A stretch of 62,883 nt of DNA, filler included, from Craspedostauros australis (taxonomy: Eukaryota): NCBI GenBank assembly GCA_030167865.1. It is 19 parts of 19 records of this genome, joined end to end, with 100 filler letters (N's around TTAATTAATTAA, not from the genome) between each part and the next. Parts side by side here need not be neighbours in the genome. Positions count along the whole stretch, not along the records: positions 8,048 to 12,967 come from JALAGF010001302.1; 18 more parts are not named here. The stretch is one strand, 5' to 3'. This document shows positions 1,673-61,700 of this stretch, one piece after another. Every line of letters starts with the position of its first letter. The stretch's first letter is position 1. The notes under the pieces were generated by a model, which was not told the origin of the DNA, did not search any database, and worked only from the letters and a program-made list of their open reading frames with translations. The position numbers were made by a program, and so were the translations under genes.

Positions 1673-1772
1673 NNNNNNNNNNNNNNNNNNNNNNNNNNNN
1701 NNNNNNNNNNNNNNNNTTAATTAATTAANNNNNNNNNNNNNNNNNNNNNNNNNNNNNNNNNNNNNNNNNNNN
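1673..1772. other. Artificial contig linker (N-run + TTAATTAATTAA + N-run); first of 18
   Basis: The same 12-mer, with stops in all frames, lies at 1717, 6251, 7992, 13012, 14855, 17109, 19642, 22161, 26829, 28620, 30366, 32208, 35886, 41226, 52539, 55160, 58488 and 61745, always inside ~100-nt N blocks. Confidence 0.98.
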
Positions 1773-4700
1773 GGCTTCGTCTGGTTGATGATCCATCCCG
1801 TTGGGACAGTTCATGTAGATCTCCTCGTCGAGGTCTTCATGTAGGAATGCCGTTACAACATCGACAAGTGCGCAGTCCATCTTTTTGATCAGCATGATCA
1901 CCATCATGACCCGATAGGTCACGTCATGGATGACGGGTGAGTAATGCTCTTGGAAGTCTACTCCTGCGACTTGTGAATAGCCACATGCAACGAGTCGTGC
2001 TCGATGTGTGCCGTCGCGTTTCAACTTGAAGACCCATTTGCACTTGCAGCATCTGCAACCGCGTGGGATGGCGTCTCGTTTGATCTTGCTGTACACCTTG
2101 CGTGTGTCCATGGAGTCGAACTCCTTCTTGATGGCTGCTCGATATCCCTTGCGATGGATGGGATCTGGGTGATTGAAGGCTCCATTGAATGTCGTTGGTT
2201 CGATGTGCTTCTCTTGTTCCTTGTTCTCGTCTTGCATCGACAATCCGATGTCGATCGCTGGTGTCTCGGTGATGATTGCGTTCATCCCGTACAGTCCTGT
2301 TGTACTATGGTGAGTGATCTCGATCTCTTCTTCTTCGTCTTCGATCCCTTCATCATCTGTAGTTTCGTTGTTGGAATCGTCGATCATCTCGTCGCTGAGT
2401 TCGTCACTATCGTCATTGGATGATGACTTGCTCTCGTAGCCTTCTTCCTTTCGACCTCGTTCGTTGAAGTCTGCGAGCTCACGCAGAGCTCTGGGAATAC
2501 TCTTCCCTGTAGTTGACTTGGGATTAGTTTCTCCCTTCCTGCCTCGTGCTTCGTGACGTCGGATCCTCTCCTTTCTAGTTATGTCACGTTTGCTTGGCTT
2601 GCTCGGTGGAGGTCTGGATGGTGTACCATGTGTAGACCTCGCTGGTGTGTTCGGAGGAGTGACGCCTGTGTCATCGTCGGCTTCGTCGCCGGATGGTGCG
2701 ATTTCATCATCCTCATGATTGGATTTGCTCCGATCTTCCTCGTCGTTATGGATTAGTTGGGTTACTGCTCCATCGTCCTCGTTATCCTCATCGTCGCTGT
2801 CCGATAGGATGTAGTACCTGTTGCTGTCAGCGAAAGATACTCTTTTTGCTTCTGATGTTTGATGCGTTGCCGTCTTCGGCGTTGCTCCCTTCCGTCCGAT
2901 GGTTGTGAAGCCGTCTGCATCTGTTGTTCCTGCTTCGCTGGATATGTTCGGTGCTGGTGCCCAGCCACGGAACTGTCCGTACGATTGGTTGAGCCACTTG
3001 ATGTCGCGAGAGCAGACCAGTGACTTGGTCGATGGTCTGTACATGTTGTAGACCCCTGATGCATGTTGGTGTGCATATCCGATGAACACCATCTCTTCTC
3101 CTCTATTCTTGAGCTTGGCGGTAATCCCGCCATAGGTAGTCTTCACAACACCCACCTCTCCGAAAGTGCGGAGTGCATCTGCATATGGTGGATCGCTGCT
3201 GAAGAATTGGCGATGTGGTGACTCCTTCTGATTCTTCGCTACAGTGATGTTGGCGATGGCGGTGGCAGTGCTTGCAGCTGCTGCCCACAGGCCATGCCTA
3301 TACTCTTCGTCGAGTTGTGCTCCGTTGAGCATGGAACGGATCTTGGTATAGAGGTACGCAAACTTGCGTTCCACTCTGTTGTTCTGTTGCGGCGTGTTCG
3401 ATGCCGTGAATTCGAATTTCACATTGAGTCCTGCATCGATGAGAATATCCTGCGTGGATTTGTTCTCTCCGCTGTTGTCACCTCGGAAGATGATCTGTTG
3501 GTCACCAGTCTGTGACTTGATCGTTTGGATGAATCGTTTGATGTATCCTGGTTGATCACTTTTGTTCTTGAGGAAGAAACTCCAACAATGATCCGTGCAG
3601 TCGTCCACGATTAGGGTCCAGTAGCGTTTATCTCCGAAGCTTATGTGTTTAGTGTAACTAATGTCAATGAAGAACTGTTCGCCGCGGCGAGTCGCTCTTG
3701 GAATCGTTACCTTCGGAATGTTCTTCACTCTTGTGTTCGCGACCGCGCAGTCACGACATACCGGCATCTCGCCGATAATCTTCCATCCGTACTGAGCGGC
3801 TGTCCGCTTCATGGTCTCGAGTGGCGCGTGGCCGAGCATTCGATGCAAGTTCACCGCGCTGATTTCCTTGGATGGATTCTTGATGATGGCTGTGCAAGCC
3901 TTGTCGTCGTCTGTTGGCATGATGGGGTGCATCTGCACTCCTGTGATGAATCCGTTGGATGTGGGGAAGACTCGATCGAATACGATCTTCGTTCCGGATC
4001 CGTTGATGATGTCCATCAGAATGCCGTTGNTACCAAGCTGGTAACCGTTGTACAGAGCCTTGTTCGTGGAGAAAAGGTTCACCGCCATTTTTGGTGTGTA
4101 CTTCACGTCATCGAGCCGGATGATGTGGCCAGTGTTGTCTTGTTGCTTGACCTTCAAGCAAATGGATCCCATTTTGGGAGAGTCCAGCTTCGTGCTGTCT
4201 CCCACTTGGACGAAGGACTTGATGTGCCGCACGTTGAAGAGAGCAGTGTCTGAATTGACGATGTGACACGAAGCTCCGCTGTCAGCGAGCCAGGTGTCCT
4301 TGTTGACCTTGTCCTTGTGTTTGGTGCTCAGCTCGTGGAGCTGCTCCACGGCTGCTGTGGCCATCTCATCCATGAGGCCGTCTGCCTCTTCATCTTCATG
4401 CACTCCATCTTCGTTGGATAGATTATGATTCTCATCAGCTTCGTCGTCGCTTGGTAGTTCAGCGAAGTGCGCTGGGACTGTGCTGTTACGATGAACTCCG
4501 GTGACCGTGTCATACGGTGTGACGCGTGGTCGCTCGCGCAGGAGCACTTGCATGCATCCTCCAAGCACGTAGTGCAAGTCCAGTTCGGAGAGTTCTTCTT
4601 CTCCGTTTGCTTGCAGTAGTCTGTTGAGGATGGCTGCATTTGCGAGGATCTCCTCAATCGATTTGAAGTTATCGGATAGGATGGTGCTTACCATGTTCAC

Positions 4701-6206
4701 CCAAATGTATCGCAATGGTTCGTTCACGAACCCTGGGAACATCGGTAATGCAGCTGTTAGGACCGCGTCGTAGATGAGCTGCTTCTGCATTCGTTTTGCA
4801 GTGACCGTTGGTTCTGGGAAGGTTTGGAGTCGGTAGATGTTGTCGACTCTTCTGGGATTCGGCTCCGGTGGGAATTGGATTCGAATTGGGTAGACGACAG
4901 CTTCGTAGGGATTGAATGCATCGTTCGGACGGTCCTCAGCTTCGTCGTTGTCCTCTTCATCGAAGATGCCCGTTCTCTCGCTTCGCATTGCTGGGGGAGG
5001 CGGCGCCTCGCCGCGGTTCGCCCCGTCTCTGATGGTGTCGTCGTCGTCTCCATCTGCGCCGTCCTCGTCGGCGTCTTCGTCTGAGCCGTTCTCGTCGGCG
5101 TCTTCGTCGTCTTCGCTCATTGCCTCTTCGATGTCACTATCGTTGGCCTCGCTGTCCATCTCGGCTCCGTCGTCGTATGAACCGATCAGGTCGTGCGCGT
5201 TGAAGCAGCATTCGTAGCTTACTTCGCGTCTTGGATCCACCTCGTGGATGATTGACTCCTCGATGAGCCACTCCGGAACGATCTCATCGTCCTGCACTTC
5301 GTCCTCACTCCCGACGCATTCAAAGTTATCGAAGAAGGAGTCTTCAATGTAGTTGTCGGACATCAACATGCAGAGTGGCATGTCCTTTGCAGAGAGTACC
5401 ATCTCGTGCCCGCTCTTGTCGTGTCCTTGTGTTGCTGTGTTGGCCTGTTCGTCGGCCTTCTTCTTCTCGTTGAACTTCTTCTTTCGGCACTCCGCCTCGC
5501 GGTGTCCGAAGATGCCACAGTAGTTGCACTTCCTGTTGAAGTCACTTCCTTTGTTGCGGTTGTTGTTGCGCTTTCCGTTCATTTTGTTGTTGTTGTTGTT
5601 GTTGTTTTTCTTTTTGTTCGATTTCTTGCGTTCTGGACAATCGGCGGATCTATGGCCATACACGCCACAGTTGTGACAAGTACCCTTGAAGTTGCTGGTG
5701 CTTGTGAAGCCGGTGTCGTTGCTCTTCGTGTTGCTGTCTTGGAAGTCGTCGACGTATGCTTTGCCTCCTCTGTGAGTGGCGTATGCAGTNNNNNNNNNNN
5801 NNNNNNNNNNNNNNNNNNNNNNNNNNNNNNNNNNNNNNNNNNNNNNNTGTTGGAAGTTCACGACGTGAGTTCTGTATTCGTTGCTCACCGTGCTGAGGAT
5901 TTGCATGATCATTTCCTCGTCCGTGATCTCGTACTTGACATCATGGAGACGCGATCATAGACTCTCGAGTTGCGTGATGTAGATGTCGGGGTCCGTGTCT
6001 CTCTTCATCTTTTCGTTGTTGAATTGGCGCTTGAGTTTGATCTTCGTCACCGCATCGGATGGTCGGAACTTCTCCGCGAGAACGTTCCACGCTCCATGTG
6101 CGTCTCCTTCGGGGTATTCGTTGGAGATGCATTGGTTGATGTACTGGATGGCCTGCTTGCCTTTTCCTTTCTCTGCATCCATCATGAGGATCAGATCGCT
6201 GAAGCA
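1773..6206 (-). mobile_element. Ty1/copia LTR retrotransposon copy 1, internal region (gag-PR-IN-start of RT), with an in-frame TGA in gag at 5955-5957
   Basis: Two CCHC knuckles (CHNCGVYGHRSADC, CNYCGIFGHREAEC); protease WLADSGAS; integrase HRMLGH...CRDC, IDIS, GDNSGE, PQQN.VER; RT CKWVFKLK...ARLVACGYSQ; order PR-IN-RT is copia. Confidence 0.96.
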
Positions 6207-6307
6207 NNNNNNNNNNNNNNNNNNNNNNNNNNNNNNNNNNNNNNNNNNNNTTAATTAATTAANNNNNNNNNNNNNNNNNNNNNNNNNNNNNNNNNNNNNN
6301 NNNNNNG

Positions 6308-7947: not shown

Positions 7948-8047
7948 NNNNNNNNNNNNNNNNNNNNNNNNNNNNNNNNNNNNNNNNNNNNTTAATTAAT
8001 TAANNNNNNNNNNNNNNNNNNNNNNNNNNNNNNNNNNNNNNNNNNNN

Positions 8048-8342
8048 TGAACGGAGTGTCGAATGCGGAGCACGCATCGAACACGGAGTATCGTGTAGCA
8101 TGAAAACACGATGTTGAGAGAGAGAGAGAGAATACAGAGAGGAGCGAGAGAGGATCTCGCGTACCGACTCATAGTCGGAGACCAAATCTACAAAACAGAT
8201 TGAAGCACCAAGAGCATCGGGCAAGACAACTGGTGTACACCAAGAGGATCGGAGTAGCCAAGTAATGAAATAGCAAGCAGACGACTATCAACCAACACCA
8301 TCTTCCACAATCGTAGGTTACCGTGAGCGGAACTTGCCAACA
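8048..8342 (+). repeat. 3' part of the 5' LTR of copia copy 2
   Basis: Matches the LTR copies at 26885-27252, 27309-28109 and 28676-28937; all end GGAACTTGCCAACA; gag follows. Confidence 0.9.
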
Positions 8343-8424
8343 CGTTTATAAACGATAGATCAGGGCGAGCCCGCGGATCGGATCGTGCGAGGAAGACGAA
8401 CATCATTCAGGAACAGCAGACTGA

Positions 8425-11400
8425 ATGAGCGAGGAAGAGGAATTGAGAGACATCCCTCTGTCCAACCCGACTATCAAGAGACAAGAAGGTGCAAGTGAGA
8501 CTCCACCACGACAAGAGAAGGAAGCAGCCGCGGCTACTGTCCTATCAGGCGCAGACGCAAGCGCGATCAACGAGACCAAAGAAGAATGGTCTGCAAGACT
8601 ACACCGTGAGGAGAAGAGCATTCTCAAGACGGTCAAGCAAGAGGAGACTGGTGTGACGGAGAGCATTCGCACAGCCAAACAGAGTGGTAAAAGTGAGACA
8701 CCACCAGGAGGAGAATTTGTGAGCAAATCAATCCTCGCGAAACAACAAACGAAAATCGAAGAATCGGCAACACAGAAACCGACGGAAATCAAGGGCGCGA
8801 GCGCACCAACAACGAAACAACGAATCAACATGGNNACATCAGCCAACATGAACAAGCGACGCATCAAGGCGCCAATGTTCAGCGGTGAACAGGAAGACTA
8901 CAGCGCATGGGAGTCCCAAGCAAAGGCATACGCTCGTGCACAGAAAACGAGAGACGTGATGTTGGGTAAGACCAAGGTGCCAACAGTGAAGGAGATCGCG
9001 GCAGCCGCCGATAAAGCCAAGGAAGCGATGGAGGAGATCTACAAGCTGGGATGCGACTGCTTCAGCGATCTGATCCTCATGATGGATGCAGAGAAAGGAA
9101 AAGGCAAGCAGGCCATCCAGTACATCAACCAATGCGTCTCCGACGATTACCCCGAAGGAGATCCACACGCAGCGTGGAACGTTCTCGCGGAGAAGTTCCG
9201 TCCATCCGACGCAGCGACGAAGATCAAGCTCAAGCGTCAGTTCAACAACAAAAAGATGAAGAGAGACACGGACCCCGACATCTACATCACACGACTCGAG
9301 GGTCTACAATCGCGTCTCCACGATGTCAAATACGAAATCTCGGACGAGGAAATGATCATGCAAATCCTCAGCACGGTGAGCAACGAGTACAGAACTCACA
9401 TCGTGAACTTCCAACACCAACTCACGTTCAATCCAGAGCTGGTCACCATCAACGCGATCAGAGGAGTACTCCGCACAGCATACGCCACTCATCAAGGAGG
9501 CAAGGTGTACATCGACGACTTCCAAGACAGTAACACAAAGAGCAACGACACCGGCTTCACGAATACCGGTAACTTCAAGGGTACTTGTCACAACTGTGGC
9601 ATGTATGGTCACAGATCCGCCGATTGCCCAGAACGCAAGAAATCGAACAACAAGAAAAACAACAACAAGATGAACGGAAAGCGCAACAACAACCGCAACA
9701 AAGGAAGCGGCTTCAACAGGAAGTGCAACTACTGTGGCATCTTCGGACGCCGCGAGGCGGAGTGCCAAAAGAAGAAGTTCAACGAGAACAAGAAGGCCAA
9801 CGAACAAGCCAACACAGCAACGGAAGGACACGACAAGAGCGGGCACGAGATGGTACTCTCGGCAAAGGACATGCCGCTCTGCATGTTGGTGTCCGACGAC
9901 TACATCAAAGACTCCTTCTTCGATAACTTCGGTACGTCGGGAGTGACGACGAAGTGCAGGACGATGAGATTGTCCCGGAGTGGCTCAGCGAGGAGCCAAT
10001 CATCCACGAGGTGGATCCAAGACGCGAAGTGAGCTACGAATGCTGCTTCAACGCGCACGACCTGATCGGTTCATACGGCGACGAAGCCGAGATGGGCAAC
10101 GAGGCCAACGATAGCGACATCGAAGAGGCCATGAGCGAAGAGGCCGACGACGAGATCAACGACAATGATAGAGGCCGAGACGAAACGAACGGCGGCGCAG
10201 CACCGCCTCCTCCAGCGGCGGGGAACAACAGATCGGGTATCTTCGACGAAGATGACAGCGACGAAACCGAGGATCATCCGGACGACAGCTTCAACCCAAA
10301 CGAGCGTGTCGTCTACCCAGGGAACATCGACTTCCCACCTATTGAGGACCCCAACAACTCCAACTACCTCCACCGTCACAACACTGTTCCATATGCAACA
10401 GCAACAGCAACAGCATTGATAATCCAGAAGCAGCTCATCTTCGATGTTGTAATGGAAGCAGGGATGCGACTATTCCCAGGAGTCGCACAAGGAGTGCTCA
10501 GACCGATATGGGTGAACATGATGGGATCCATCCTATCCGAGAACTTCAAATCAATCGAAGAGATTCTCGCCAATTCGGTCGTCATCAACCGCATACTGGA
10601 AGCGGATGACACAGAGACGATCCCAGAGACGGATCTGCACTACATTCTTGGAGGATGCATGCACGTACTCTTACGCGAACGACCACGCGTCCACCCATAC
10701 GATCCAGTCACAGGATCACATCGTAACAGTACGACTCCATCGGACTACGCGCAGCTACCCGACAACACGGACGATGAGCATCACGAGAATCCATGGAACG
10801 AATATGGAGTTCACGTCGACGAAGAAGACAAAGACAACTTCATGGCCAATACAGCTGCAGCAACCGTGGAGCAGCTCCATGAGCTGAGCACCAGATACAA
10901 GGACAAGGTCAACAAGGACACCTGGCTCGCCGACAGTGGAGCTTCGTGTCACATCGTCAATTCGGACGCCGCTCTCTTCAACGTGCGGCACATCAAGTCC
11001 TTCGTCCAAGTGGGAGACAGCACGAAGCTGGACTCTCCCAAAATGGGATCCATTTGCTTGAAGGTCAAGCAACAAGACAACACTGGCCACATCATCCGGC
11101 TTGATGATGTGAAGTACACACCGAAAATGGCGGTGAACCTTTTCTCCACGAACAAGGCTCTGTACAACGGCTACCAGCTTGGTAACAACGGCATTTTGAT
11201 GGACATCATCAACGGATCCGGAACGAAGATTATGTTCGATCGAGTCTTCCCCACATCCAACAGATTCATCACGGGAGTGCAGATGCATCCCATCATGCCA
11301 ACGAATGACGACAAGGCTTGCACAGCCATCATCAAGAATTCATCCAAGGAGATCAGCGCGGTGAACTTGCATCGAATGCTTGGCCACGCGCCACTCGAGA

Positions 11401-12882
11401 CCATGAAGCGGACAGCCGCTCAATACGGATGGAAGATCATCGGCGAGATGTCGATATGTCGCGACTGCGCGGTCGCGAACGCAAGAGTGAAGAACATCCC
11501 GAAGGCAACGATTCCAAGAGCGACTCGCCGTGGCGAACGGCTCTTCATTGACATTAGTTACACTAAACACATAAGCTTTGGAGATAAACGCTACTGGACC
11601 CTGATCGTGGACGACTGCACGGATCATTGCTGGAGTTTCTTTCTCAAGAACAAAAGTGATCAACCAGGGTACATCAAACGGTTCGTCCAGACGATCAAGT
11701 CACAGACAGGTGACCAACAGATCATCTTCCGAGGTGACAACAGCGGAGAGAACAAATCCACGCAGGATATTCTCATCGATGCAGGACTGAATGTGAAATT
11801 CGAGTTCACGGCATCGAACACGCCGCAACAGAACGGCAGAGTAGAACGCAAGTTCGCGTACCTCTACACCAAGATCCGCTCCATGCTAAACGGAGCACAG
11901 CTCAACGAAGAGTATAGGCATGGCCTGTGGGCAGCAGCTGCTAGCACTGCCACCGCCATCGCCAACATCACCGTAGCGAAGAATCAGAAGGAGTCACCAC
12001 ATCGACAATTCTTCGGCAACGATCCACCATACGCGGATGCACTCCGCACATTTGGAGAGGTGGGTGTTGTGAAGACTACCTACGGCGGGATTACCGCCAA
12101 ACTCAAGAACAGAGGAAAAGAGATGGTGTTCATCGGATATGCACACCAACACGCATCAGGGGTCTACAACATGTACAGACCATCGACCAAGTCACTCATC
12201 TGTTCTCGCGACATCAAATGGCTCAACCAATCATACGGACAGTTCCGTGGCTGGGCACCAGCACCGAACATATCCAACGAAGCAGGAACGACGGACGCAG
12301 ACGGCTTCACAACCATCGGATGGAAGGGAGCAATGCCAAGGACGGCAACGCGTCAAGCATCAGAAGCGAAGAGAGTATCTTTCGCTGACAGCAACAGGTA
12401 CTACATCCTATCGGACAGCAACGATGAGGATGATGAGGACGACGGAGTAGTGACTCAACTGGTCCACAATGACGAGGAAGATCGGAGCAAATCCAATCAT
12501 GAGGATGACGAGATCACACCATCCAGCGACGAAGCCGATGATGACACAGGCGTCACTCCTCCGAACACACCAGCGAGGTCTACACATGACACACCATCCA
12601 GACCTCCACCGAGCAAACCAAGCAAGCGTGACATAGCTAGAAAGGAGAGGATCCGACGTCACGAAGCACGAGGCAGGAAGGGAGAAGCTATTCCCAAGCC
12701 AACCACAGGAAAGAGTATTCCCAGAGCTCTGCGTGAGCTCGCAGACTTCAACGAACGAGGTCGAAAGGAAGAAGGCTATGAGAGCGATCCATCATCCGAT
12801 GAGGCGAGTGACGAACTCAGCGACAAGATGATCGATGATTCCAACAACGAAACTACAGATGATGAAGAAATCGTGGATGAAG
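8425..12882 (+). mobile_element. Ty1/copia copy 2, gag-PR-IN, with a 1-bp deletion frameshift near 9932; truncated at ~12882 before RT
   Basis: ORFs 8425-10032 (Gag: FSGEQEDYSAW, knuckles) and 9954-12902 (PR, IN) form a single frame in copy 1; similarity to the other copies stops at 12882. Confidence 0.95.
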
Positions 12883-13067
12883 GTAATAGAGCCCAAACGT
12901 AATGGCTGTTGTCTTGTTGGCTGTTCTTTAGCTGTAGGCAGAGGCTTGACTGGCAAGCGGTCCGGACNNNNNNNNNNNNNNNNNNNNNNNNNNNNNNNNN
13001 NNNNNNNNNNNTTAATTAATTAANNNNNNNNNNNNNNNNNNNNNNNNNNNNNNNNNNNNNNNNNNNN

Positions 13068-17164: not shown

Positions 17165-19597
17165 CATCATCCGGCTCGATGACGTGAAGTACACACCGAA
17201 AATGGCGGTGAACCTTTTCTCCACGAACAAGGCTCTGTACAACGGCTATCAACTCGGTAGCAACGGCATTCTGATGGACATCATCAACGGATCCGGAACG
17301 AAGATCGTGTTCGATCGAGTCTTCCCCACATCCAACGGATTCATCACNNNNNNNNNNNNNNNNNNNNNNNNNNNNNNNNNNNNNNNNNNNNNNNNNNNNN
17401 NNNNNNNNNNNNNNNNNNNNNNNNAGATCAGCGCGGTGAACTTGCATCGAATGCTCGGCCACGCGCCACTCGAAACCATGAAGCGGACAGCCGCCCAATA
17501 CGGATGGAAGATCATCGGCGAGATGCCAGTATGTCGCGACTGCGCGGTCGCGAACGCAAGAGTGAAGAATATGCCGAAGGCAACCATTCAAAGAGCAACT
17601 CGCCGTGGCGAACGGTTCTTCATTGACATTAGTTACACTAAACACATAAGCTTTGGAGATAAACGCTACTGGACCCTGATTGTGGACGACTGCACGGATC
17701 ACTGCTGGAGTTTCTTTCTCAAGAACAAAAGTGATCAACCAGGGTACATCAAACGATTCATCCAAATGATCAAGTCACAGACTGGTGACCAACAGATCAT
17801 CTTCCGAGGTGANNNNNNNNNNNNNNNNNNNNNNNNNNNNNNNNNNNNNNNNNNNNNNNNNNNNNNNNNNNNNNNNNNNNNNNNNNNNNNNNNNNNNNNN
17901 NNNNNNNNNNNNNNNNNNGAACGCAAGTTCGCGTACCTCTACACCAAGATCCGCTCCATGCTCAACGGAGCACAGCTCGACGAAGAGTATAGGCATGGCC
18001 TATGGGCAGCAGCCGCTAGCACTGCCACCGCCATCGCCAACATCACCGTAGCGAAGAACCAGAAGGAGTCACCACATTGACAATTCTTCGGCAACGATCC
18101 ACCATATGCGGATGCACTCCGCACGTTTGGAGAGGTGGGTGTTGTGAAGACTACCTATGGCGGGATCACCGCCAAACTCAAGAACAGAGGAGAAGAGATG
18201 GTGTTCATCGGATATGCACACCAGCACGCATCAGGGGTCTACAACATGTACAGACCATCGACCAAATCACTGGTCTGCTCTCGCGACATCAAGTGGCTCA
18301 ACCAATCATACGGACAGTTCTGTGGCTGGGCACCAGCACCGAACATATCCAGTAAAGCAGGAACAACAGATGCAGACGGCTTCACAACTGTTGGACGGAA
18401 GGGAGGAACACCGAAGTCGGCAACGCATCGAACATCAGAAGCAAAGAGAGTATCTTTCGCTGACAGCAACAGCTACTACATCCTATCGGATAGCGACGAT
18501 GAGGATGACGAAGACAATGGAGCAGTGACTCAACTAATCTATAACGACGAGGAAGATCGGAGCGAATCCAATCAGGAGGATGACGAAATCCAATCATCCG
18601 GCGACGAAGCTGACGATGACACAGGTATTACTCCTCCAAACACACCACTGAGGTCTACACATGACACACCATCCAGACCTCCGCCAACCAAACCAAACAA
18701 GCGTGACATAGCTAGAAAGGAGAGAATCCGACGTCACGAAGCACGAGGCAGGAAGGGAGAAGTTAATCCCAAGCCAACTACAGGGAAGGGTATTTCCAGA
18801 GCTCTGCGTGAGCTCGCAGACTTCAACGACCGAGGTCGAAAGGAGGAAGGCTATGAGAGCAAATCATCATCCAACGAAGATAGTGACGAACTCAACGACG
18901 AGATGATCGACGATTCCAACAACGAAACTACAGATGATGAAGAAATCATGGACGAAGATGAGGAGATCGAGATCACTCATCATAGCACAACAGAACTATA
19001 CGGGATGAATGCAATTATCACCGAGTCACCAGCGATCGACATCGGATTGTCGATGCAGGACGAGAACAAGGAACAAGAGAAGCACATCGAACCAACAACA
19101 TTCGATGGAGCCTTCAATCACCCAGATCCCATCCATCGAAAGGGATATCGAGCAGCCATCAAGAAGGAGTTCGACTCTATGGATACACGCAAGGTGTACA
19201 GCAAGATCAAGCGAGACGCCATCCCACGCGGCCGCAGATGCTGCAAGTGCAAATGGGTCTTCAAGCTAAAACGTGACGGCACACATCGAACGCGGCTCGT
19301 TGCATGTGGCTATTCACAAGTCGCAGGAGTAGACTTCCAAGAGCATTACTCACCCGTCATCCATGACGTGACCTATNNNNNNNNNNNNNNNNNNNNNNNN
19401 NNNNNNNNNNNNNNNNNNNNNNNNNNNNATGTCGTAACGGCATTCCTACATGGAGACCTCGACGAGGAGATCTACATGAACTGTCCCAACGGGATGGATC
19501 ATCAACCAGACGGAGCCCTGACCCTACACAAGCCAATCTACGGACTTGTGCAGAGCGCCAGGCAATGGTTCAAGATGTTGGTATCGACCCTCAAGAA
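17165..19597 (+). mobile_element. Ty1/copia copy 3, integrase-RT fragment, with a CGA>TGA stop at 18078-18080
   Basis: Near-identical to copies 1 and 2; RT motifs VTAFLHGDLDEEIYM and YGLVQSARQW. Confidence 0.95.
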
Positions 19598-19831
19598 NNN
19601 NNNNNNNNNNNNNNNNNNNNNNNNNNNNNNNNNNNNNNNNNTTAATTAATTAANNNNNNNNNNNNNNNNNNNNNNNNNNNNNNNNNNNNNNNNNNNNTTG
19701 CCCATTCAAGCCTCCGAGCAACCACCTTCCTGACTGCTCCATTCTGTCTCAAGATACTCTCGTGCACTGCATTGCACTCCACACCTCACTTCATCCCATC
19801 TATCACCCACGTTCTCTTTTGAAACCGTCTC

Positions 19832-21616
19832 ATGGTATTCAATCTGCTTTCACTTGGCTTCTTGTTCGTGTTGCCAATGCGCACGAGCAATATCCTCAAC
19901 AATGAACTCACCACCGCACACCACAATACAAACATGAAAGGCTCTCTCTCGGCTGCCGCCGCCGATAACAGCGATGGCGACAGCATCAGCAACCTAGACT
20001 TGATACGTGCCGCGGAACAAGGCAATGTGGACATGATCGATGCATGGAAACGCCGCTTCCCACAGACCTCCATCGACACAGTCAAGGACAGCGCTGAGAG
20101 GACTCTGCTTCATCATGCATGCATCAGCGGGCAGCTTGACATGGTGTTGCACTTGGTGGAATCCTGCGAAGCCGATCCCAGCGTCCAATCTAACGACGGC
20201 GAGACCGCACTCCATTACGCATGTGCTCAAGGCAACCTGGATGTGGTGTCATACCTGGCAGACCTGCCGAGCATCGATGTCGACCTCCAAGATACGCAAG
20301 GCAAGACTGCTCTCTACGACGCCTGCTTTGAAGGTCATGTGGATGTCGGAAGAACCTTGNTAGAATCCTTCGGTGCAGATGTGACCAGCCGAGATGTCGC
20401 AGGCGGAACAGTGCTCCATGGTGCATGTCTTCAGGGTCATCTGGATGTTGTGGAATACCTGATCGGGCCATGTGAAGCCAAAGTCAACATCCAGGATAAC
20501 TTCGGCAACACCGCACTGCACAATGCGTGTTTGAAGGGTCACGTCGATGTGATGAAGTATTTATTGAGGTCAGATGCCCTGAATGTCAATCTCCAGAACA
20601 ACGATGGCAACACTGTGCTGTGGCAGGCATGTTCCAGTACCAATTCGGATGTCGTCCAGTGCTTGGCGAAATCCTCGAAGGTGAATCTCAATATCCAACA
20701 CGGAGACAGCAAAGATGCAGCGCTTCATGTTGCATGCTCCAACGGGCATCTGGACATGGTGAAATGCATCATGGCATCACGCAGAGCCAATATCAATCTT
20801 CAAAACAAGCACGAACAGACGCCCCTTCACGTTGCATCCTCCAACGGACATTTGAATGTTGTGAAATATCTTGTGGAGTCCTGCACGCCAGATATCACCA
20901 TCAGAGCCAGCTTTCGCGGAACTGCGCTGGATCATGCGTGCTTCAATGGTCATCTGGAAGTTGCGAAGTACTTGGTGGAATGGCTGACGATGGATGGAGA
21001 CCTTGGCCATAATGAGCTGGAATGGGCACTTTGTGAGACGTGCGAAAATGGTCACTTGAATATTGTGCAGTATCTCGTAGAGTCATGCCAAGCATATGTC
21101 AACATCCAGGAGGATAATTGGCGCTTGGCATTTTGCACGGCACTCGCGTTCGATCATTTTGATGTCGCGAAGTATCTGGCAGGGTCATGTGGAGTGGATA
21201 TCAATGTCCAGAATAAGAGGGGAAATACCGCGTTTCACACGGCGATTTGTTTCTTCGAAATAAGTACAGTGACGTATCTGGTGGAGTCATGCGGAGCGGA
21301 TATCCACATTCGAGGGAGAAATGGAGAAACGGCACTCCATAGAGCATGCAGATTCGGCAATTTGGATGCCATGAGGTGGCTGGTGTCACGTGGGGCGGAT
21401 ATCAGCACCCGAGATGCACATGGAAACACCTTGCTCCACACAGCATGCTCACAGGCCCATTATGGCGAGTATTTGAAGGTTGTGAAGTATCTGGTGGAGT
21501 CGTGTGGAGCTGATCTCAATGCTCGCAACAACGATGGGAAGACTCCGCTCGAGTGCGTTCGGCGCGAAGGATTCTTGTATTACGAAGTTGCCACCTATTT
21601 AGAGAAGCTCACGTGA
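19832..21616 (+). CDS. Ankyrin repeat protein (~15 repeats); the start may be the ATG at 19934
   Basis: Repeated G.TALH.AC..GHLDVV.YLVESC.AD motifs; intronless ORF. Confidence 0.93.
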   Translation: MVFNLLSLGFLFVLPMRTSNILNNELTTAHHNTNMKGSLSAAAADNSDGDSISNLDLIRAAEQGNVDMIDAWKRRFPQTSIDTVKDSAERTLLHHACISGQLDMVLHLVESCEADPSVQSNDGETALHYACAQGNLDVVSYLADLPSIDVDLQDTQGKTALYDACFEGHVDVGRTLXESFGADVTSRDVAGGTVLHGACLQGHLDVVEYLIGPCEAKVNIQDNFGNTALHNACLKGHVDVMKYLLRSDALNVNLQNNDGNTVLWQACSSTNSDVVQCLAKSSKVNLNIQHGDSKDAALHVACSNGHLDMVKCIMASRRANINLQNKHEQTPLHVASSNGHLNVVKYLVESCTPDITIRASFRGTALDHACFNGHLEVAKYLVEWLTMDGDLGHNELEWALCETCENGHLNIVQYLVESCQAYVNIQEDNWRLAFCTALAFDHFDVAKYLAGSCGVDINVQNKRGNTAFHTAICFFEISTVTYLVESCGADIHIRGRNGETALHRACRFGNLDAMRWLVSRGADISTRDAHGNTLLHTACSQAHYGEYLKVVKYLVESCGADLNARNNDGKTPLECVRREGFLYYEVATYLEKLT

Positions 21617-22216
21617 ACGAGAGCGGAGCAGAACCGCAACTAGTGCCAATGCGACGGGACGGTTCTGCGTCAATGGTTGTTCTGAGTGGCACAGATCTTG
21701 GGACACTCATGGATTAACAACGTGGGGAGTAAGCCGAGATAGAGGACTGTGCATCAAGCGCCTCAGTCCATCATACTATTCCAGCGTGATGCACTCTGGA
21801 GAGTATGTCCTCATGGCCACAAGCAGTGTTCTGCAAGTGTCTGCATGGTGGAGTAATGAGAGCACACACAACAAGTAAATGTCAAGCGCGGAGGGCAGCA
21901 ACGAATCTGATGACGATGATGATTAGCCTTTTGAGGATGATGCAAACGTAGTGTGGGTATCCTACGCTTCCTCCAATGTACGATGGACTGCTGGTCTGCC
22001 CCATGTTGACCTTCATGCTGATCCTAGTTGTCCCAATCGCAGCGTAGGCATGTTGTGACAGATATATCCGCCTCGATTTGGTTCACGAAGTTGCACCTTT
22101 GACCTCCAAGACCGTTNNNNNNNNNNNNNNNNNNNNNNNNNNNNNNNNNNNNNNNNNNNNTTAATTAATTAANNNNNNNNNNNNNNNNNNNNNNNNNNNN
22201 NNNNNNNNNNNNNNNN

Positions 22217-22583
22217 TGTGGGAAGCGGCGTTTCCATGCATCGATCATGTCCACATTGCCTTGTTCCGCGGCACGTATCAAGTCTAGGTTGCTGATGCTG
22301 TCGCCATCGCTGTTATCGGCGGCGGCAGCCGAGAGAGAGCCTTTCATGTTTGTATTGTGGTGTGCGGTGGTGAGTTCATTGTTGAGGATATTGCTCGTGC
22401 GCATTGGCAACACGAACAAGAAGCCAAGTGAAAGCAGATTGAATACCATGAGACGGTTTCAAAAGAGAACGTGGGTGATAGATGGGATGAAGTGAGGTGT
22501 GGAGTGCAATGCAGTGCACGAGAGTATCTTGAGACAGAATGGAGCAGTCAGGAAGGTGGTTGCTCGGAGGCTTGAATGGGCAA
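22217..22583 (-). repeat. Duplicate of the ankyrin gene 5' end (reverse complement of 19698-20064)
   Basis: Sequence identical by eye; ORF 22165-22449 repeats the N-terminus. Confidence 0.95.
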
Positions 22584-26070: not shown

Positions 26071-26784
26071 AACGGTCTTGGAGGTCAAAGGTGCAACTTC
26101 GTGAACCAAATCGAGGCGGATATATCTGTCACAACATGCCTACGCTGCGATTGGGACAACTAGGATCAGCATGAAGGTCAACATGGGGCAGACCAGCAGT
26201 CCATCGTACATTGGAGGAAGCGTAGGATACCCACACTACGTTTGCATCATCCTCAAAAGGCTAATCATCATCGTCATCAGATTCGTTGCTGCCCTCCGCG
26301 CTTGACATTTACTTGTTGTGTGTGCTCTCATTACTCCACCATGCAGACACTTGCAGAACACTGCTTGTGGCCATGAGGACATACTCTCCAGAGTGCATCA
26401 CGCTGGAATAGTATGATGGACTGAGGCGCTTGATGCACAGTCCTCTATCTCGGCTTACTCCCCACGTTGTTAATCCATGAGTGTCCCAAGATCTGTGCCA
26501 CTCAGAACAACCATTGACGCAGAACCGTCCCGTCGCATTGGCACTAGTTGCGGTTCTGCTCCGCTCTCGTTCACGTGAGCTTCTCTAAATAGGTGGCAAC
26601 TTCGTAATACAAGAATCCTTCGCGCCGAACGCACTCGAGCGGAGTCTTCCCATCGTTGTTGCGAGCATTGAGATCAGCTCCACACGACTCCACCAGATAC
26701 TTCACAACCTTCAAATACTCGCCATAATGGGCCTGTGAGCATGCTGTGTGGAGCAAGGTGTTTCCATGTGCATCTCGGGTGCTG
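26071..26784 (-). repeat. Duplicate of the ankyrin gene 3' end and downstream DNA (reverse complement of 21403-22116)
   Basis: Identical by eye; ORF 26571-26756 repeats the C-terminus. Confidence 0.95.
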
Positions 26785-32263: not shown

Positions 32264-32488
32264 GTCAACAAACACAAAAAGATCGACTAGATAGTAGTAA
32301 CAACAAGATAATGCTATTGCTTGCCTGGATAGCCCTGAGTCTTAAGTTTAGGTAGATGCAAAGAGATATTCGATTGAGTGTCTATAANTTTAAGTCTGAG
32401 TTTGGGAAAAACGGGTCCAAAATCTGTAGCCAATCATCGCCAAACATCGCCAAACATCGCCAAACATTTGGGTCCGGCTCTTTGAGGC
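32264..32488. mobile_element. Terminus of a multicopy transposon, copy 1
   Basis: The same 225 bp opens three contigs, contains CATCGCCAAA repeats and ends CTCTTTGAGGC. Confidence 0.8.
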
Positions 32489-32675
32489 ACTAGTGCTATC
32501 GTGACCCATTTTACATTCTCTGCAGGTCGTACATAGTGACTCGTGTTATGTGATGATTGCCTTATGCATTAGTACTTGCTAGTAATGTCATCTTTCTCTT
32601 TGTGTTGATATATACGGAATACTTGTGTCTGTTGCAGTCGTTCTCTGCTCGCGCCATGCTTCTTCACTGTTACAT

Positions 32676-35941: not shown

Positions 35942-36166
35942 GTCAACAAACACAAAAAGATCGACTAGATAGTAGTAACAACAAGATAATGCTATTGCTT
36001 GCCTGGATAGCCCTGAGTCTTAAGTTTAGGTAGATGCAAAGAGATATTCGATTGAGTGTCTATAAGTTTAAGTCTGAGTTTGGGAAAAACGGGTCCAAAA
36101 TCTGTAGCCAATCATCGCCAAACATCGCCAAACATCGCCAAACATTTGGGTCCGGCTCTTTGAGGC
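35942..36166. mobile_element. Terminus of a multicopy transposon, copy 2
   Basis: Near-identical to 32264-32488 with a different flank. Confidence 0.8.
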
Positions 36167-36726
36167 ACTCGCTTTGTTGTGTTGCGTTGTGTTTGCGTTT
36201 GTTGGCTTCCGTTCGCACAAGGAATCTTTTCGAATGTTGTTACTAGCCTGCGCTATGGAAACTAGATGGGATTGGATGTCGTATTTTGTGCACCACCACA
36301 TCAACACCCAATAGTACAACGCTCCAGCAAGACATTATTCTTCACCCTCGCTCTCTCTTTCTCTCTCTCTTTCTTGCTCTCTTTTCTCTTTCTGTTTTCT
36401 AGTTTTACATTGTGGCCATGTTCATGCAGAGGTGCTCACATACCTACTACTGTGTACGAATTGTATCACCGCTCCAAGCGGCGTGCTCTGATCAGATCAA
36501 CCGAAGTCTGCAAACACTGCCCGCAACATCGACTTGCGAACAGAGGATGGATGATGGTCGTGCATTGTGTTGCATTGTACTGTGCTGTGTCATCTGCGAG
36601 TACTGTCCTCAGAGCGGGGCGAGTTCCTGTCGCTGTTACATCTTTCATCTTTGGTATTGCCTTCTTCAGCATCCATCTATCCATCCATCATCCACCATTC
36701 ATCCATCATTCTTCATCCATCACCGC

Positions 36727-41281: not shown

Positions 41282-41506
41282 GTCAACAAACACAAAAAGA
41301 TCGACTAGATAGTAGTAACAACAAGATAATGCTATTGCTTGCCTGGATAGCCCTGAGTCTTAAGTTTAGGTAGATGCAAAGAGATATTCGATTGAGTGTC
41401 TATAACTTTAAGTCTGAGTTTGGGAAAAACGGGTCCAAAATCTGTAGCCAATCATCGCCAATCATCGCCAAACATCGCCAAACATTTGGGTCCGGCTCTT
41501 TGAGGC
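41282..41506. mobile_element. Terminus of a multicopy transposon, copy 3
   Basis: About two substitutions relative to copy 2; different flank. Confidence 0.8.
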
Positions 41507-41783
41507 AATAGGGAACGAATCAAGACCATCTCGTCATGCTCGGAGAACTTAGCAAGCATTCATGGAGAGGGCATCATACTGCGAGTATCCTACTCGAACT
41601 TGTTGAATAGCAGGTATGGATACGAGTAGGGGTGGGTCTACGTGACGAAGAAGGAGAGAAGAGATGGGCTTTCGTATAGAACAACATCAAAGAGTCCACT
41701 GCTATTCATGCATTAGATACTGCTTCGTGTTCAACAAATACTATGCTGTGATACTGGAGTAACCTGCCGTGCTCTCCTCTGAT

Positions 41784-42989
41784 CTACCTTCCACCTGCGT
41801 TCATGAGAGTTTGGTTGATCTTGATCAAATGCGCACGGACCAAAAACTGCTTCTTGGCCAGCTTGCGGACCGCCTTGAGATGAGTCGTGCAATCCATCTG
41901 GCCCATGTACATGGCACGATCCAGGAAGTAGAGCGCATCCGTGAGCGCGGCATTTTCTGCAGAAAGCTCGAGCATCTGGGAGTACAGCTTGGTGGATGGC
42001 TTGCACAGGTCGTCAACATGGACCTTCTGCGCATGGCTGGATGTCTTGGCCTCCTCGAGCCATTCTTGGATCTCCTTGGTCTTGTCCTCCAGCACCTGCG
42101 ATTGCTCCTCCAGCTCGCTCTTGACCTTGCGGAAATACTCCAGCTCCTCCTGCACGGCCTCCTTGCTCTCCTCGAGGCGGAAATTGTCCCTCCAGTCGCT
42201 CTCCAGCTGAGCCTTGGTCTCCTGCGACATCTGGGCGAAGTGCTTGGCGAGCTTGTCGTTGAGCTTCTGCTTGAGCCGCCTGACCCTGCCCTCCTCCTCC
42301 GCCTTTTCTACCATCGCCCGCTTCTTCTTCTCTTCCTCGTCGTGGGCGGCCTGACGCGCAACTTCCGCAGCCCGGTTCGCCTCCTCCGCCTCCTTGGCCA
42401 GAATCGCCTGAATCTGCTCCTGGAGGAACCGGTCGGACTCGCTCGACGACTTGTCGCTCACGGGTGTGATATCTTCTGAGTACGATGGCGGCGGCTGCGC
42501 AGCGGCGGGCGGTGGGTTCGGCCGCTCGGGCTCCGGCGGTTTGCTGAACACCGGCGGATCGGCCGAAAACACGCTGCTCATCGCAATCACCATCTCGACG
42601 AGGTTGTGCGTACGGGCGCTCCATTCATGCAGGTAGGGCATGTACAGCATGCCGTCGTTGCCCACGTGCCTGTGGTTCGCCTTGAGGTACATGTGGGGCG
42701 CCAATCGCACGAACGTGACGGGAGGTCGTCGCGGGTAGCCGCTCGGCAGGTAGATGTCCACCAGCTGCTGATACGTCTGGCCTCGGTACGCCATCGCGAT
42801 GGTGCCCTGCAGCACGAGGCAGTTGGTCGTGTTGCCATTGTTCTCCACGAGCGGAGCGATGCCCGGCTTGAGATGGAGGCCAATCGGGGTCCTCAGCAGC
42901 ATCGAGGCATCGCGATCAACCCGCGACGGGTCTCTGTACAGCCCGCCCAGCCGGCTCATCACCGTCGCGACTCTGGGATCGTGGACCAT
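41784..42989 (-). CDS. TSG101: ESCRT-I subunit TSG101/Vps23
   Basis: UEV domain (LQGTI...YRG.TY...IYLP..YP..PP...HV..DG..Y.PYLHEW), Pro-rich linker, coiled coil, C-terminal steadiness box (AENAALTDALYFL...LKAVRKLAKKQF). Confidence 0.93.
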   Translation of the reverse strand: MVHDPRVATVMSRLGGLYRDPSRVDRDASMLLRTPIGLHLKPGIAPLVENNGNTTNCLVLQGTIAMAYRGQTYQQLVDIYLPSGYPRRPPVTFVRLAPHMYLKANHRHVGNDGMLYMPYLHEWSARTHNLVEMVIAMSSVFSADPPVFSKPPEPERPNPPPAAAQPPPSYSEDITPVSDKSSSESDRFLQEQIQAILAKEAEEANRAAEVARQAAHDEEEKKKRAMVEKAEEEGRVRRLKQKLNDKLAKHFAQMSQETKAQLESDWRDNFRLEESKEAVQEELEYFRKVKSELEEQSQVLEDKTKEIQEWLEEAKTSSHAQKVHVDDLCKPSTKLYSQMLELSAENAALTDALYFLDRAMYMGQMDCTTHLKAVRKLAKKQFLVRAHLIKINQTLMNAGGR

Positions 42990-43014
42990 CGTGACCTGCC
43001 CTTTCTTGCCTCCT

Positions 43015-43072
43015 AGCTATCGCTATTGTTGTTGCTATTGTTGCTGCTATTGTTGCTGCTATTGTTGCTGTG
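43015..43072. repeat. (GCTATTGTTGCT)n minisatellite in the TSG101 leader
   Basis: About 4 tandem 12-mers. Confidence 0.8.
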
Positions 43073-44432: not shown

Positions 44433-45139
44433 GCACGAGGAGAATACACAGAAGAATGAGAGAGAGAAATTGAGACAGATTGCGGAAGTGTACACATGTC
44501 TGTGCTTTCTGTGGTGAATGGATGTGAGGGCATTGCACCATAATGTAACTTTTAGAGTAAGAATATTGTGATAACGTTCGAACAGAGTACTATACCTTAT
44601 GTTCGAGTTGTTAGGGAGTACTGTCCGCGTCCTCGTTGTCATCGGCTTTCGTCAGCGTCATAGGCTCTACATTCAGTTGATAGAGTGTTGTGGATTCAAT
44701 AAGGCACACGATTGGAGGGGGCGTGATGGCCCTCGCTTCGTGTTGATCGTCCACCACCAAAAAACGAGAACAACTGCACAAAGGCGCCAGTTCCTGTGCA
44801 TCCACACACAGATCTTACCGTAGTCGTCGATGTCAACCTTTCACCCCACAAATCTTTCCACGTTCTCTCTGGAGTCGGAACTGCAGATCAAACGCTCGCT
44901 CATTCATTTACTCTACGCTGTCAGGAACAAAGCGTGTGCTTCATCTCAGCACAGCCAACTCAATCCAACTCTCTCTTTCCCTCCGACGAACGAAGGTCCG
45001 TGTCCGTGGAAAGTGCGGCATTGATCATCATTAGCAGCACCCACATCTGGGTCTACACCTGCATCATCCGCACCATCCGCATCACCGGCATCCAGACTCG
45101 AACAAGTAACAGCGTCCACCAACAGGCAACCAGCAAATC

Positions 45140-50182: not shown

Positions 50183-50603
50183 ACTTCTCCTTCTTTGCAT
50201 CTCCTGTCCTGGCAGCGACAGGGCATCTATTCTACGACCTAAGCGCACGCTGCCGAAAGTCGGTGGGTCCGCCAGCTTCGCACGGAATGTGTCCGGTTGG
50301 TCTTGTTCTTGTTTATGTTCGTTAGTCATGGACGGACAACTTTGGTTCGATATTCTGATTCGCGAGCACCAACACGAATATTGGTGTCCGTAATACGAAA
50401 CAACTGTTCGAAAAACGTACATCGAACACGACGTCAACACAAGAAAGCCCTGTTAGGAACGACATTTCCACGAAACCCCAACAGAAACAAAAACCAGAAC
50501 ACCCAAACGACTCAACGCAACACGAGCACTGCTGACACTGCTGACACACACCCAATCGACCAACCGATCACCTCACCAAACAAGCGAAACCGATCGTCTC
50601 ACA

Positions 50604-52454: not shown

Positions 52455-52594
52455 ATGCGACGACTGCGACAACAATGGCGATGATGATGACGAANNNNNN
52501 NNNNNNNNNNNNNNNNNNNNNNNNNNNNNNNNNNNNNNTTAATTAATTAANNNNNNNNNNNNNNNNNNNNNNNNNNNNNNNNNNNNNNNNNNNN

Positions 52595-58848: not shown

Positions 58849-61700
58849 TTATGCAAATGTTCTCGATGTGTCAAGGTACGACTTCTCGTGTTCACGTTGT
58901 AAGTCGGCCTTGATGTTCTTGGTGAATCCGTTGCTTGTGTTCTGCTCTGACTTGACGAAGATGATTTCGATGGTCTTGTTGGTTACCATGTTCCTCACGT
59001 AGTGATGGCGCACGTCGATGTGCCGCAATCGTTGGGATGTTGATGGGTTCTTGGCAATGAAGATTTCTCCGATGTTGTCCATGCGGACCTTGATCGGTGT
59101 CTTCACTGGGACACCCACACTTTCGAGTAGCTGCACAACGAAGAAGATTTCCTTTGCTGCTTCGGAAAGGGCAACATATTCTGCTTTGGATGAGCTGAGT
59201 GTGACGGCCTTCTGTGCCTTGGATCGCCAAAGGATTGGTACCTTGCACAGGTATAGGATGAACCCTCCTACGCTGATTCTCGTGTTCTTGTCTCCTCCAT
59301 ATTCGCTGTCGCAGAAGAGCTCCATGTCCCAGCCGTCGTCGTCTGGACATGCTGGATGGATCTTCAATCCATAGTCCTTTGTATCGATCACATACTTGAT
59401 GATCCGATACATCTCCTTCATTGCGGCCTTGGTGNNNNNNNNNNNNNNNNNNNNNAGTTCCCTCACAGGGTTCGCGATATCTGGTCGCGAGTGCTTGATG
59501 AGGAAGAGTAGCATACCGACGCCTCGGCGGTATTCGACATGTTCTTCTGGTCCGACCTTCTGCAGTCCGTCATCTTTGGATGGTCGTACGATGATTTGAC
59601 CCGGGGTTCCTGGTGTTGCGTAGCGTTGCATCTTCTCAACCTTGGTTCCAAACTCTTCAATGAGATGTTGGATGAGATGTGGTTGACGCAACGTTGCTCT
59701 GGTCTTGTCATGGTTCAGTTCGATGTTGCAGCTGAGGTAGTCTCCGAGTCCGCGCTCGATTGTNNNNNNNNNNNNNNNNNNNNNNNNNNNNNNNNNNAAT
59801 GTCTCCAGTGCCTTGGAGTCTCCGCAGCAGAAGCAATCGTCCACGTAGATGGCCACGATCATGCTTCCTTCGTTCGTCTTCCTGTAAAACAGGCACGGGT
59901 CTGCTGCGCTCTGTTCGAAGTTGATATTCTTGAGGGTCGAAACCAACATCTTGAACCATTGCCTGGCGCTCTGCACAAGTCCGTAGATTGGCTTATGTAG
60001 GGTCAGGGCTTCGTCTGGTTGATGATCCATCCCGTTGGGACAGTTCATGTAGATCTCCTCGTCGAGGCCTCCGTGTAGGAATGCCGTTACGACATCGACG
60101 AGTGCGCAGTCCATCTTCTTGATCAGCATGATCACCATCATGACCCAATAGGTCACGTCATGGATGACGGGTGAGTAATGCTCTTGGAAGTCTACTCCTG
60201 CAACTTGTGAATAGCCACATGCAACGAGCCGCGCTCGATGTGTGCCGTCACGCTTCAGCTTGAAGACCCATTTGCATTTGCAGCATCTGCGGCCGCGTGG
60301 GATGGTATCTTGTTTGATCTTGCTGTACACCTTGCGTGTATCCATGGAGTCAAACTCCTTCTTGATGGCTGCTCGATATCCCTTCCGATGGATAGAATCT
60401 GGGTGATTGAAGGCTCCATCGAATGTTGTAGGTTCGATGTGCTTTTCTGGTTCCTTGTTCTCGTCCTGCATCGACAATCCGATGTCGATCGCTGGTGATT
60501 CGGTAATGATTGCATTCATCCCATATAGTCCAGTTGTGCTATGGTGAGTGATCTCGATCTCTTCATCTTCGTCTTCGATTTCTTCGTCATCTGTAGTTTC
60601 GTTGTTAGAGTCGTCGATCATCTCGTCGCTGAGTTCGTCGCTCGCCTCATTGGACGATGGATCGCTCTCATAGCCTTCTTCCTTTCGACCTGGTTCGTTG
60701 AAGTCTGCGAGCTCGCGCAGAGCTCTGGGAATACTCTTTCCTGCAGTTGACTTGGGATTAGCTTCTCCCTTCCTGCCTCGTGCTTCGTGACGTCGGATCC
60801 TCTCCTTTCTAGCTATGTCACGCTTACTTGGTTTGCTTGGTGGAGGTCTGGATGGTGTGTCATGTGTAGACCTCGCTGGTGTGTTCGGAGGAGTGACGCC
60901 TGTGTCATCGTCGGCTTCGTCGCCGGATGGTAGGATCTCATCATCCTCATGATTGGATTCGCTCCGATCTTCCTCGTCATTCTGGATTAGTTGAGTCACT
61001 ACTCCACCGTCCTCATTATCCTCATCATCGCTGTCTGATAGGATGTAGTACCTGTTGCTGTCAGCGAAAGATACTCTCTTCACCTCTGATGTTCGACGCG
61101 CTGCCGTCCTTGGCGTTGCTCCCTTCCGTCCGATGGCCTTGAAGCTGTCTGCGTCCGTGGTGTCTGCATTGTTGACTGTGTTTGGTGCTTGCGCCCAGCC
61201 ACGGAACAGTCCGTATGATTGATTGAGCCATTTGATGTTGCGAGAACAGACCAGTGACTTGGTTGATGGTCTGTACATGTTGTACACTCCTGATGCGTGT
61301 TGGTGTGCATATCCAATGAACACCATCTCTTCTCCTCTATTCTTGAGTTTGGCAGTGATCCCACCATAGGTCGTCTTCACAACACCCACCTTTCCGAATG
61401 TTCGAAGTGCATCAGCATATGGTGGATCACTATCGAAGAATTGGCGGTGTGGTGGCTTCTTCTGATTCTTCGCTACGGTGATGTTGGCGATGGCGGTGGC
61501 AGTGCTCACGGCTGCTGCCCACAGGCCATGCCTGTACTTGTCATTGAGTTGTGCTCCATTGAGCATGGAGCCGATCTTGGTGTAGAGATACACAAACTTG
61601 TGTTCTACTCTACCATTCTGCTGTGGCGTGTTGGATGCCGTGAACTCGAATTTCGCATTCAGTCCAGCATTGACGAGAATGTCCTGCGTGGATTTGTTCT
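58849..61700 (-). mobile_element. Ty1/copia copy 4: integrase end, RT, RNase H
   Basis: YVDD, SRPDIA, FCDSEYGGD, LSSSKAEYVA, RHIDVRHHYVR; NTSNGFTK has N at the conserved RNase H Asp. Confidence 0.96.

Follow-up and report, generated by a model that had tools for sequence, protein, structure and literature searches.

A long coding stretch, discordantly diverged in part, between Gag and protease in a Ty1/copia family of the diatom Craspedostauros australis

The retroelements of diatoms have been little studied at the protein level. Here we describe a Ty1/copia family of the diatom Craspedostauros australis, found in a 62,883-base stretch of DNA that was analysed as a whole (the window), whose members encode a long extra piece of polyprotein between the Gag zinc knuckles and the protease. 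In retroviruses, both the p6/p6* region of human immunodeficiency virus (HIV) and the dUTPase of betaretroviruses lie between nucleocapsid and protease, a position that matches that of the extra stretch.

Among diatom elements, the CoDi group of Ty1/copia (Maumus et al., 2009; PMC2806351) shares with the Craspedostauros element its superfamily and the order gag-protease-integrase-reverse transcriptase. Tandem CCHC knuckles are reported for CoDi6.2-6.5 (PMC2806351), and the Craspedostauros element also has two knuckles; its placement with the CoDi lineage is tentative. The length of the region that follows the knuckles differs: the relatives have 81-118 amino acids between the second knuckle and the DSGAS motif of the protease, compared with 389-401 here, and lack a stretch of about 290 residues that includes a hydrophobic core. 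We found no description of an extra gag-protease domain in copia or diatom elements in the open-access literature searched.

Exchange of Gag-side sequence has a documented precedent in a swap of gag between subfamilies of Ty1 (PMC7055915). The Ty1 and Ty1' elements of Saccharomyces are alike over pol and differ in a Gag-side segment gained by recombination, as we propose for the diatom element; in yeast, however, what was exchanged is the capsid gene, for which a part in controlling copy number has been shown by experiment, whereas here it is a post-nucleocapsid, pre-protease stretch seen in two copies (PMC7055915). In the ONSEN element of Arabidopsis, recombination within the family is the same mechanism as that proposed below, but it was seen directly in new insertions, whereas here it is deduced from patterns of divergence (PMC5668417). 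Fixation of extra protein domains in long terminal repeat (LTR) retrotransposons is described as rare, and orchid Ty3/gypsy elements with an m6A (N6-methyladenosine) demethylase domain resemble the present one in carrying an extra coding module in the polyprotein (PMC9289625).

The copia family and its extra coding stretch

The window consists of 19 contigs (1,083-11,213 bases) joined by artificial N44-TTAATTAATTAA-N44 spacers, which lie at 1673-1772, 6207-6306, 7948-8047, 12968-13067 and 14 more places. The two copies that cover the region of interest sit on separate contigs, so their relative place and orientation are meaningless; the first-pass annotation had called them alleles, but they are really copies on different contigs. 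Copy 1 (1773..6206, minus strand) is cut by its contig at both ends and runs from C-terminal gag to the N-terminal part of the reverse transcriptase (RT) in a single open frame, 1725-5954 (P0001), interrupted by N gaps. Copy 2 (8048..12967, plus strand) is read in a gag frame, 8425-10032 (P0002), and a pol frame, 9927-12902 (P0003), separated by a 1-nucleotide (nt) deletion near 9931. Its homology to copy 1 stops at 12883, and the final 85 bases before the contig end (12883-12967) are unrelated to copy 1, indicating a truncation or an insertion junction. Copy 2 is either a dead copy or an assembly error. Both contigs end within or near the coding region. Two fragments of the family lie elsewhere in the window, copy 3 (17165..19597, plus strand; protease/integrase to RT) and copy 4 (60007..61700, minus strand; integrase to RT), and both fall outside the variable segment described below.

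Pfam domains follow the copia order Retrotran_gag_2, zf-CCHC, Pol_BBD, rve, SH3_retrovirus and RVT_2. In P0001 they comprise zf-CCHC at residues 91-108, Pol_BBD at 555-638, a weak rve match at 755-847, SH3_retrovirus at 922-988 and RVT_2 at 1296-1390, and P0002 has Retrotran_gag_2 at 246-342. The order of gag, protease, integrase and reverse transcriptase, together with RVT_2 and Retrotran_gag_2 of the copia type, is that of a Ty1/copia element. The protease part was modelled by AlphaFold as a beta-barrel with a predicted local distance difference test score (pLDDT) of 73-89, and its top structural matches in the PDB were retroviral proteases (Foldseek; best match XMRV protease, E 1e-3, probability 1.00). 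At E <= 1e-10 P0003 was matched by only 8 proteins, only two of them at more than 30% identity. The closest database relatives are P0004 (38% identity), whose 90% cluster includes a Thalassiosira pseudonana gag-pol polyprotein, and P0005 (35%). Because identity to these relatives is low, the elements form a distinct family within diatom-type copia. It is reasonable, on sequence grounds, to regard copies 1 and 2 as paralogous members of a single Ty1/copia family that is akin to the CoDi elements of diatoms.

The distance from the end of the second zinc knuckle to DSGAS is 401 residues in copy 1, in which the knuckle lies at 5487..5528 (minus strand; P0001 residues 143-156) and DSGAS at 4269..4283 (minus strand; residues 558-562). 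It is about 389 residues in copy 2, in which the knuckle lies at 9724..9765 (plus strand) and the protease, recognised as Pol_BBD, at 10923..11174 (plus strand) with DSGAS at 10932-10946. The same interval measures 52-138 residues in all ten of the other copia polyproteins compared, three of which share one 90% cluster. An unusual length had been recognised from the outset, although the figure of about 350 residues first given for it was too low, and the suggestion that the element has extra coding sequence relative to the short linkers of its relatives was borne out. In an alignment with P0005, the extra stretch appears as a gap of about 290 residues that begins directly after a common DSFFD.F motif.

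The extra stretch is an acidic conserved piece followed by an acidic, proline-rich linker, a hydrophobic core of about 105 residues and a second acidic linker, as read from the translated composition. Only the last 240-255 residues vary, while the first 70 or so are conserved between the copies. The conserved piece (GSDDEVQDDEIVPEW...IEEAMSE; 9939..10137, plus strand) is identical at 60 of 67 residues and is not found in the nearest relatives. Next comes the N-linker of the variable segment (10140..10412, plus strand), with 24-31% aspartate plus glutamate (D+E), 12% proline and a ratio of nonsynonymous to synonymous divergence (dN/dS) of 0.52. The core of copy 2 (10413..10732, plus strand; 106 residues) is 41-42% hydrophobic, with a dN/dS of 0.25, a synonymous divergence (dS) of 1.1 and four helices predicted at low confidence; that of copy 1 (4482..4793, minus strand; 104 residues, from RM.QKQLIYD to HRNST) is likewise predicted to be helical. 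The C-linker (10733..10862, plus strand) has 27-35% D+E and a dN/dS of 0.47. The shared motifs that the first-pass annotation had quoted for the core are present in both copies.

Divergence and ancestry of the variable segment

Divergence between the two copies is far from uniform along the element. In 60-nt windows, identity was mostly 0.87-1.00 in the flanks and 0.48-0.83 across 10141-10860 of copy 2, which corresponds to 5115-4360 of copy 1. A likelihood scan for two breakpoints, run on 3752 aligned columns with 432 differences, gave a likelihood-ratio statistic of 290; on a coarse grid the statistic was 282, and among 100 shuffles of the columns the highest value was 22.3. The maximum-likelihood breakpoints in copy 2 are 10156 and 10858, with support intervals of 10138-10164 and 10857-10870, and the variable segment accordingly spans 10138..10870 (plus strand) in that copy. 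In copy 1 it spans 4357..5113 (minus strand), with the 5' break at 5113-5042 and the 3' break at 4358-4345. Nucleotide divergence is 32.5% within the segment (copy 2 10156-10858, copy 1 5089-4357) and 6.8% outside it. The 5' break sits within a tract of acidic GAN repeats. The 3' break precedes DSGAS by about 25 codons and marks the point at which similarity to P0005 returns. Within the window, tblastn found no copies of the segment beyond copies 1 and 2.

At the protein level the segment is identical in 129 of 256 alignment columns; the upstream flank has 60 identical columns of 67, and the downstream flank 626 of 673. The sharp boundaries with roughly half the residues matching between them were thus as first described, as was the presence of two copies in these places that stay in frame throughout. 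The flanks had been called near-identical, which overstates the case at 93-95% identity, although they are far more similar to each other than the segment is. The sense frame through the segment has no stops in either copy. A gene overlapping the segment in another frame was considered and dropped, as each of the other five frames has 4-13 stops.

A profile of this shape could also arise without recombination if the region between Gag and protease were a locally hypervariable spacer, shaped by relaxed constraint, by diversifying selection or by a local hot spot of mutation, for instance where the acidic repeats slip. The linkers are of low complexity, acidic and prone to insertion and deletion, copy 1 is 45 nt longer at the 5' boundary, and the linker dN/dS of about 0.5 approaches 1 around 10254-10374, all of which would suit such a spacer. 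Faster protein evolution, however, leaves synonymous divergence unraised. By the method of Nei and Gojobori, applied by script to one sequence pair, dS reaches 0.93 across the segment and 1.1 within the core, compared with 0.15-0.22 in the flanks, so that segment dS is about 4.6 times flank dS (synonymous counts, segment versus flanks, Fisher's test, p = 1.5e-16). A second comparison, which is independent of the linker alignment, was confined to unchanged residues that have more than one codon: in the core 26 of 63 such residues (41%) use a different codon in the two copies, and in the flanks 78 of 664 do (12%; p = 3e-8). The ratio of transitions to transversions falls from 6.2 outside the segment (179/29) to 1.07 inside it (116/108). 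This shift is a signature of much older, partly saturated divergence rather than of an unaltered mutation process acting more often. The boundaries, too, are step-like and show no gradient. We therefore regard a hypervariable spacer as an improbable account of the segment.

The raised dS, the codon differences and the shift in the transition/transversion ratio together place the coalescence of the segment roughly 4-5 times further back than that of the remaining element, a depth that points to recombination or gene conversion between long-separated sublineages. The discordance is sharply bounded and is present at synonymous sites too, as expected of a mosaic. G+C content at third codon positions is the same for the two versions and the flanks (0.59-0.62), which gives neither version the look of foreign sequence in composition.

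We think it probable, with some reserve, that the family carries a post-nucleocapsid, pre-protease stretch specific to its lineage, of which the distal 720-750 nt were exchanged between diverged sublineages. Under this proposal the linkers and core, about 720-750 nt in all, would trace back to a far earlier split than the remaining parts do, and the likeliest cause would be recombination between two long-diverged sublineages of the copia family. A likely route would be copy-choice recombination, in which reverse transcriptase switches template between co-packaged RNAs. Ectopic gene conversion between integrated genomic copies would be an alternative route that leaves indistinguishable traces. 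One crossover would have fallen among the acidic GAN repeats and the other in conserved sequence directly ahead of the protease barrel. The exchange of a cassette between subfamilies, as it was first put, is upheld in so far as the segment has an older and separate ancestry with sharp boundaries; repeated exchange is not, as one event suffices.

The integrase-RT region, for which four copies are available, provides evidence on the rest of the family. Among 38 informative sites, the split 14|23 is favoured in the 5' part (6 of 9 sites) and 13|24 downstream (18 of 25), a switch of support (Fisher's test, p = 0.0014) that shows apparent recombination elsewhere in the copia family, among its four copies.

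Two further features of the flanks were observed. Local rises of dS to 0.4-0.6, from about 0.2, occur in copy 2 at 12354-12470, in the long acidic integrase-RT linker, and at about 11574, in the integrase; nearest-neighbour relations among the four copies shift alongside them, and they may represent further small recombinant patches. In addition, 86% of the flank differences (179 of 208; copy 2 9058-10155 and 10859-12880) are transitions, and 82 of these 179 fall at CpG sites, a class that accounts for about 15% of positions. This excess fits methyl-CpG deamination of silenced elements, although the observed/expected ratio of CpG is still 1.09.

The hydrophobic core

Within the variable segment the core stands apart from the linkers. 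Its dN/dS is 0.25, far from 1 (nonsynonymous versus synonymous, Fisher's test, p = 4e-8), and 39 of its 48 hydrophobic columns are hydrophobic in both versions. To judge from these codon comparisons, the core is shown to be coding and selectively maintained. Its fold was approached by structure prediction. AlphaFold run on the two-sequence alignment gave a mean pLDDT of 47, and when the protease and seven relatives were added the core stayed near a pLDDT of 50, while the protease reached 73-89. Four helices appeared in the core in both runs, with core pLDDT only 47-62. A folded four-helix domain is a reasonable inference from these models. The first-pass annotation had proposed a folded domain of about 120 residues under purifying selection; selection can be assigned to a core of about 105 residues, and folding is only predicted. 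In the scheme proposed above, the core would be a folded part of the Gag C-terminus or of the pre-protease region.

Relatives of the core were sought in several collections, and none of the searches yielded a described domain. A 155-residue core region had no match at E <= 0.001 among 1.84 billion representative proteins (phmmer). Word-indexed searches with P0001 residues 275-545 against proteins of 774-2466 residues, and with alignment A1 against proteins of 273-2000 residues, gave no match. No Pfam family was hit at E <= 10 by either version, and among PDB sequences the best hit was FMR1 at E 0.43, which we took as chance. The ESM Atlas returned phage hypothetical and portal-like clusters as its top rows, at a recognition value of 1705, below the 2300 reached by 91 of 100 known-family proteins, and is therefore uninformative. 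Metagenome contigs scanned with the core alignment and with the protease region gave pattern matches only, none of them confirmed, and a scan of viral contigs with the core alignment likewise gave none that was confirmed. With the low-confidence core model Foldseek found no match at E <= 0.001, and with the core plus protease model it matched the protease part only. The orchid demethylase domain and the retroviral p6/p6* and dUTPase all have recognisable homologues or motifs; the core has none in Pfam, among PDB sequences or among the 1.84 billion proteins. Internal duplication was rejected as its origin, since a BLASTP comparison of the core with the element's own proteins and with relatives gave nothing below E 0.69.

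Late-domain motifs of retroviral p6 and similar proteins are defined as P(T/S)AP, PPxY and YPxnL. Inspection by eye of both segment translations found no PTAP/PSAP, PPxY or YPx(1-3)L. A PPPP run is conserved in both versions. By analogy with the retroviral p6/p6* region, the position and composition of the core might suggest a role in assembling the particle or in setting when the protease is released, an idea that we put forward tentatively.

Genomic setting and interpretation

The rest of the window carries genes of host type, and the window is therefore eukaryotic nuclear DNA. They include an ESCRT-I Vps23/TSG101 homologue with UEV and Vps23 core (41784-43016, minus strand) and the largest subunit of an RNA polymerase (45110-48176, plus strand), which is read in two frames with an intron or frameshift near 46365-46381. 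Also present are a long ankyrin-repeat protein (19823-21616, plus strand), a CAP-Gly/leucine-rich-repeat/ubiquitin-like protein (50457-52454, plus strand) and an AMP-binding enzyme (52547-55159, minus strand). Inverted matches of 100% identity occur at the ends of different contigs, one of 714 bases (21403-22116 and 26071-26784) and one of 367 bases (19698-20064 and 22217-22583), and have the look of contig ends that overlap or of a single locus assembled redundantly. A repeat of about 228 bases, 98.7-99.6% identical, opens three contigs (32264-32493, 35942-36169 and 41282-41511). Long stop-free antisense frames lie over copia coding sequence at 3615-4253 (plus strand), 5256-5960 (plus strand) and 10755-11339 (minus strand), none of them openly overlapping the variable segment; they probably arise because the sense strand is strongly enriched in A (AT skew about +/-0.3-0.4).

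Several points weigh against exchange between sublineages as we have proposed it. The segment is covered by only two copies, so one event suffices, and the parent lineage, the direction and the number of events are not derivable from them. Copy 2 is defective, with a frameshift and a truncation, and both copies are on short contigs. Uncertain alignment of the acidic linkers may inflate linker dN and dS, although the result for the core is independent of it. The dN/dS values come from one pair, and saturation at dS near 1 makes the ratio approximate. Both structure models reach a pLDDT of only about 50 over the core. Finally, core relatives were not found anywhere that was searched, so conservation rests on two sequences.

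A different reading of the same mosaic is that two old cassette types coexist in a freely recombining population in which the flanks are repeatedly homogenised, the cassette being a specificity module under balancing or frequency-dependent selection. The deep ancestry of the cassettes between young flanks, the purifying selection on the core in both versions and the further recombination seen in the family are all in keeping with it, and there is a precedent in Ty1/Ty1', in which a gag difference that arose by recombination governs self-encoded copy-number control (PMC7055915). Two sequences are unable to demonstrate balancing selection, however, a single introgression accounts for the data equally well, and nothing links the region to interference. 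We consider this reading quite unlikely. A functional form of it, in which the post-nucleocapsid helical core would be a particle self-recognition or specificity module kept in two deeply diverged versions, the rarer of which escapes interference from related or defective copies, is speculative, and we give it little credence.

An assembly artefact, in which different repeat copies were fused into a chimera in one or both of the short contigs, might be invited by the make-up of the window, 19 pieces of only 1.1-11.2 kb that contain internal N gaps, and by repeats that at 93-95% identity are prone to mis-joins, but it is very unlikely, because an assembler may mis-pair flanks and cassettes yet cannot create two in-frame, 55%-identical versions with conserved motifs and a dN/dS of 0.25, and because a mis-join at these points needs similar flanks beside both cassette versions already, which is the mosaic itself.

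With exchange between diverged sublineages as the preferred reading, the evidence supports a mosaic and selection, and supports no function, whether anti-silencing, host interaction or particle self-recognition, the three roles suggested in the first-pass annotation. What the family presents is an orphan, selectively maintained core at the junction of Gag and protease, in two old versions within young and similar elements. If the self-recognition idea were true, diatoms would have their own equivalent of the copy-number control that Ty1/Ty1' exert through gag, resting on a new orphan domain. The family would help to ask how retroelement populations exchange modules, and whether Gag-side modules set the specificity of assembly or interference outside yeast.

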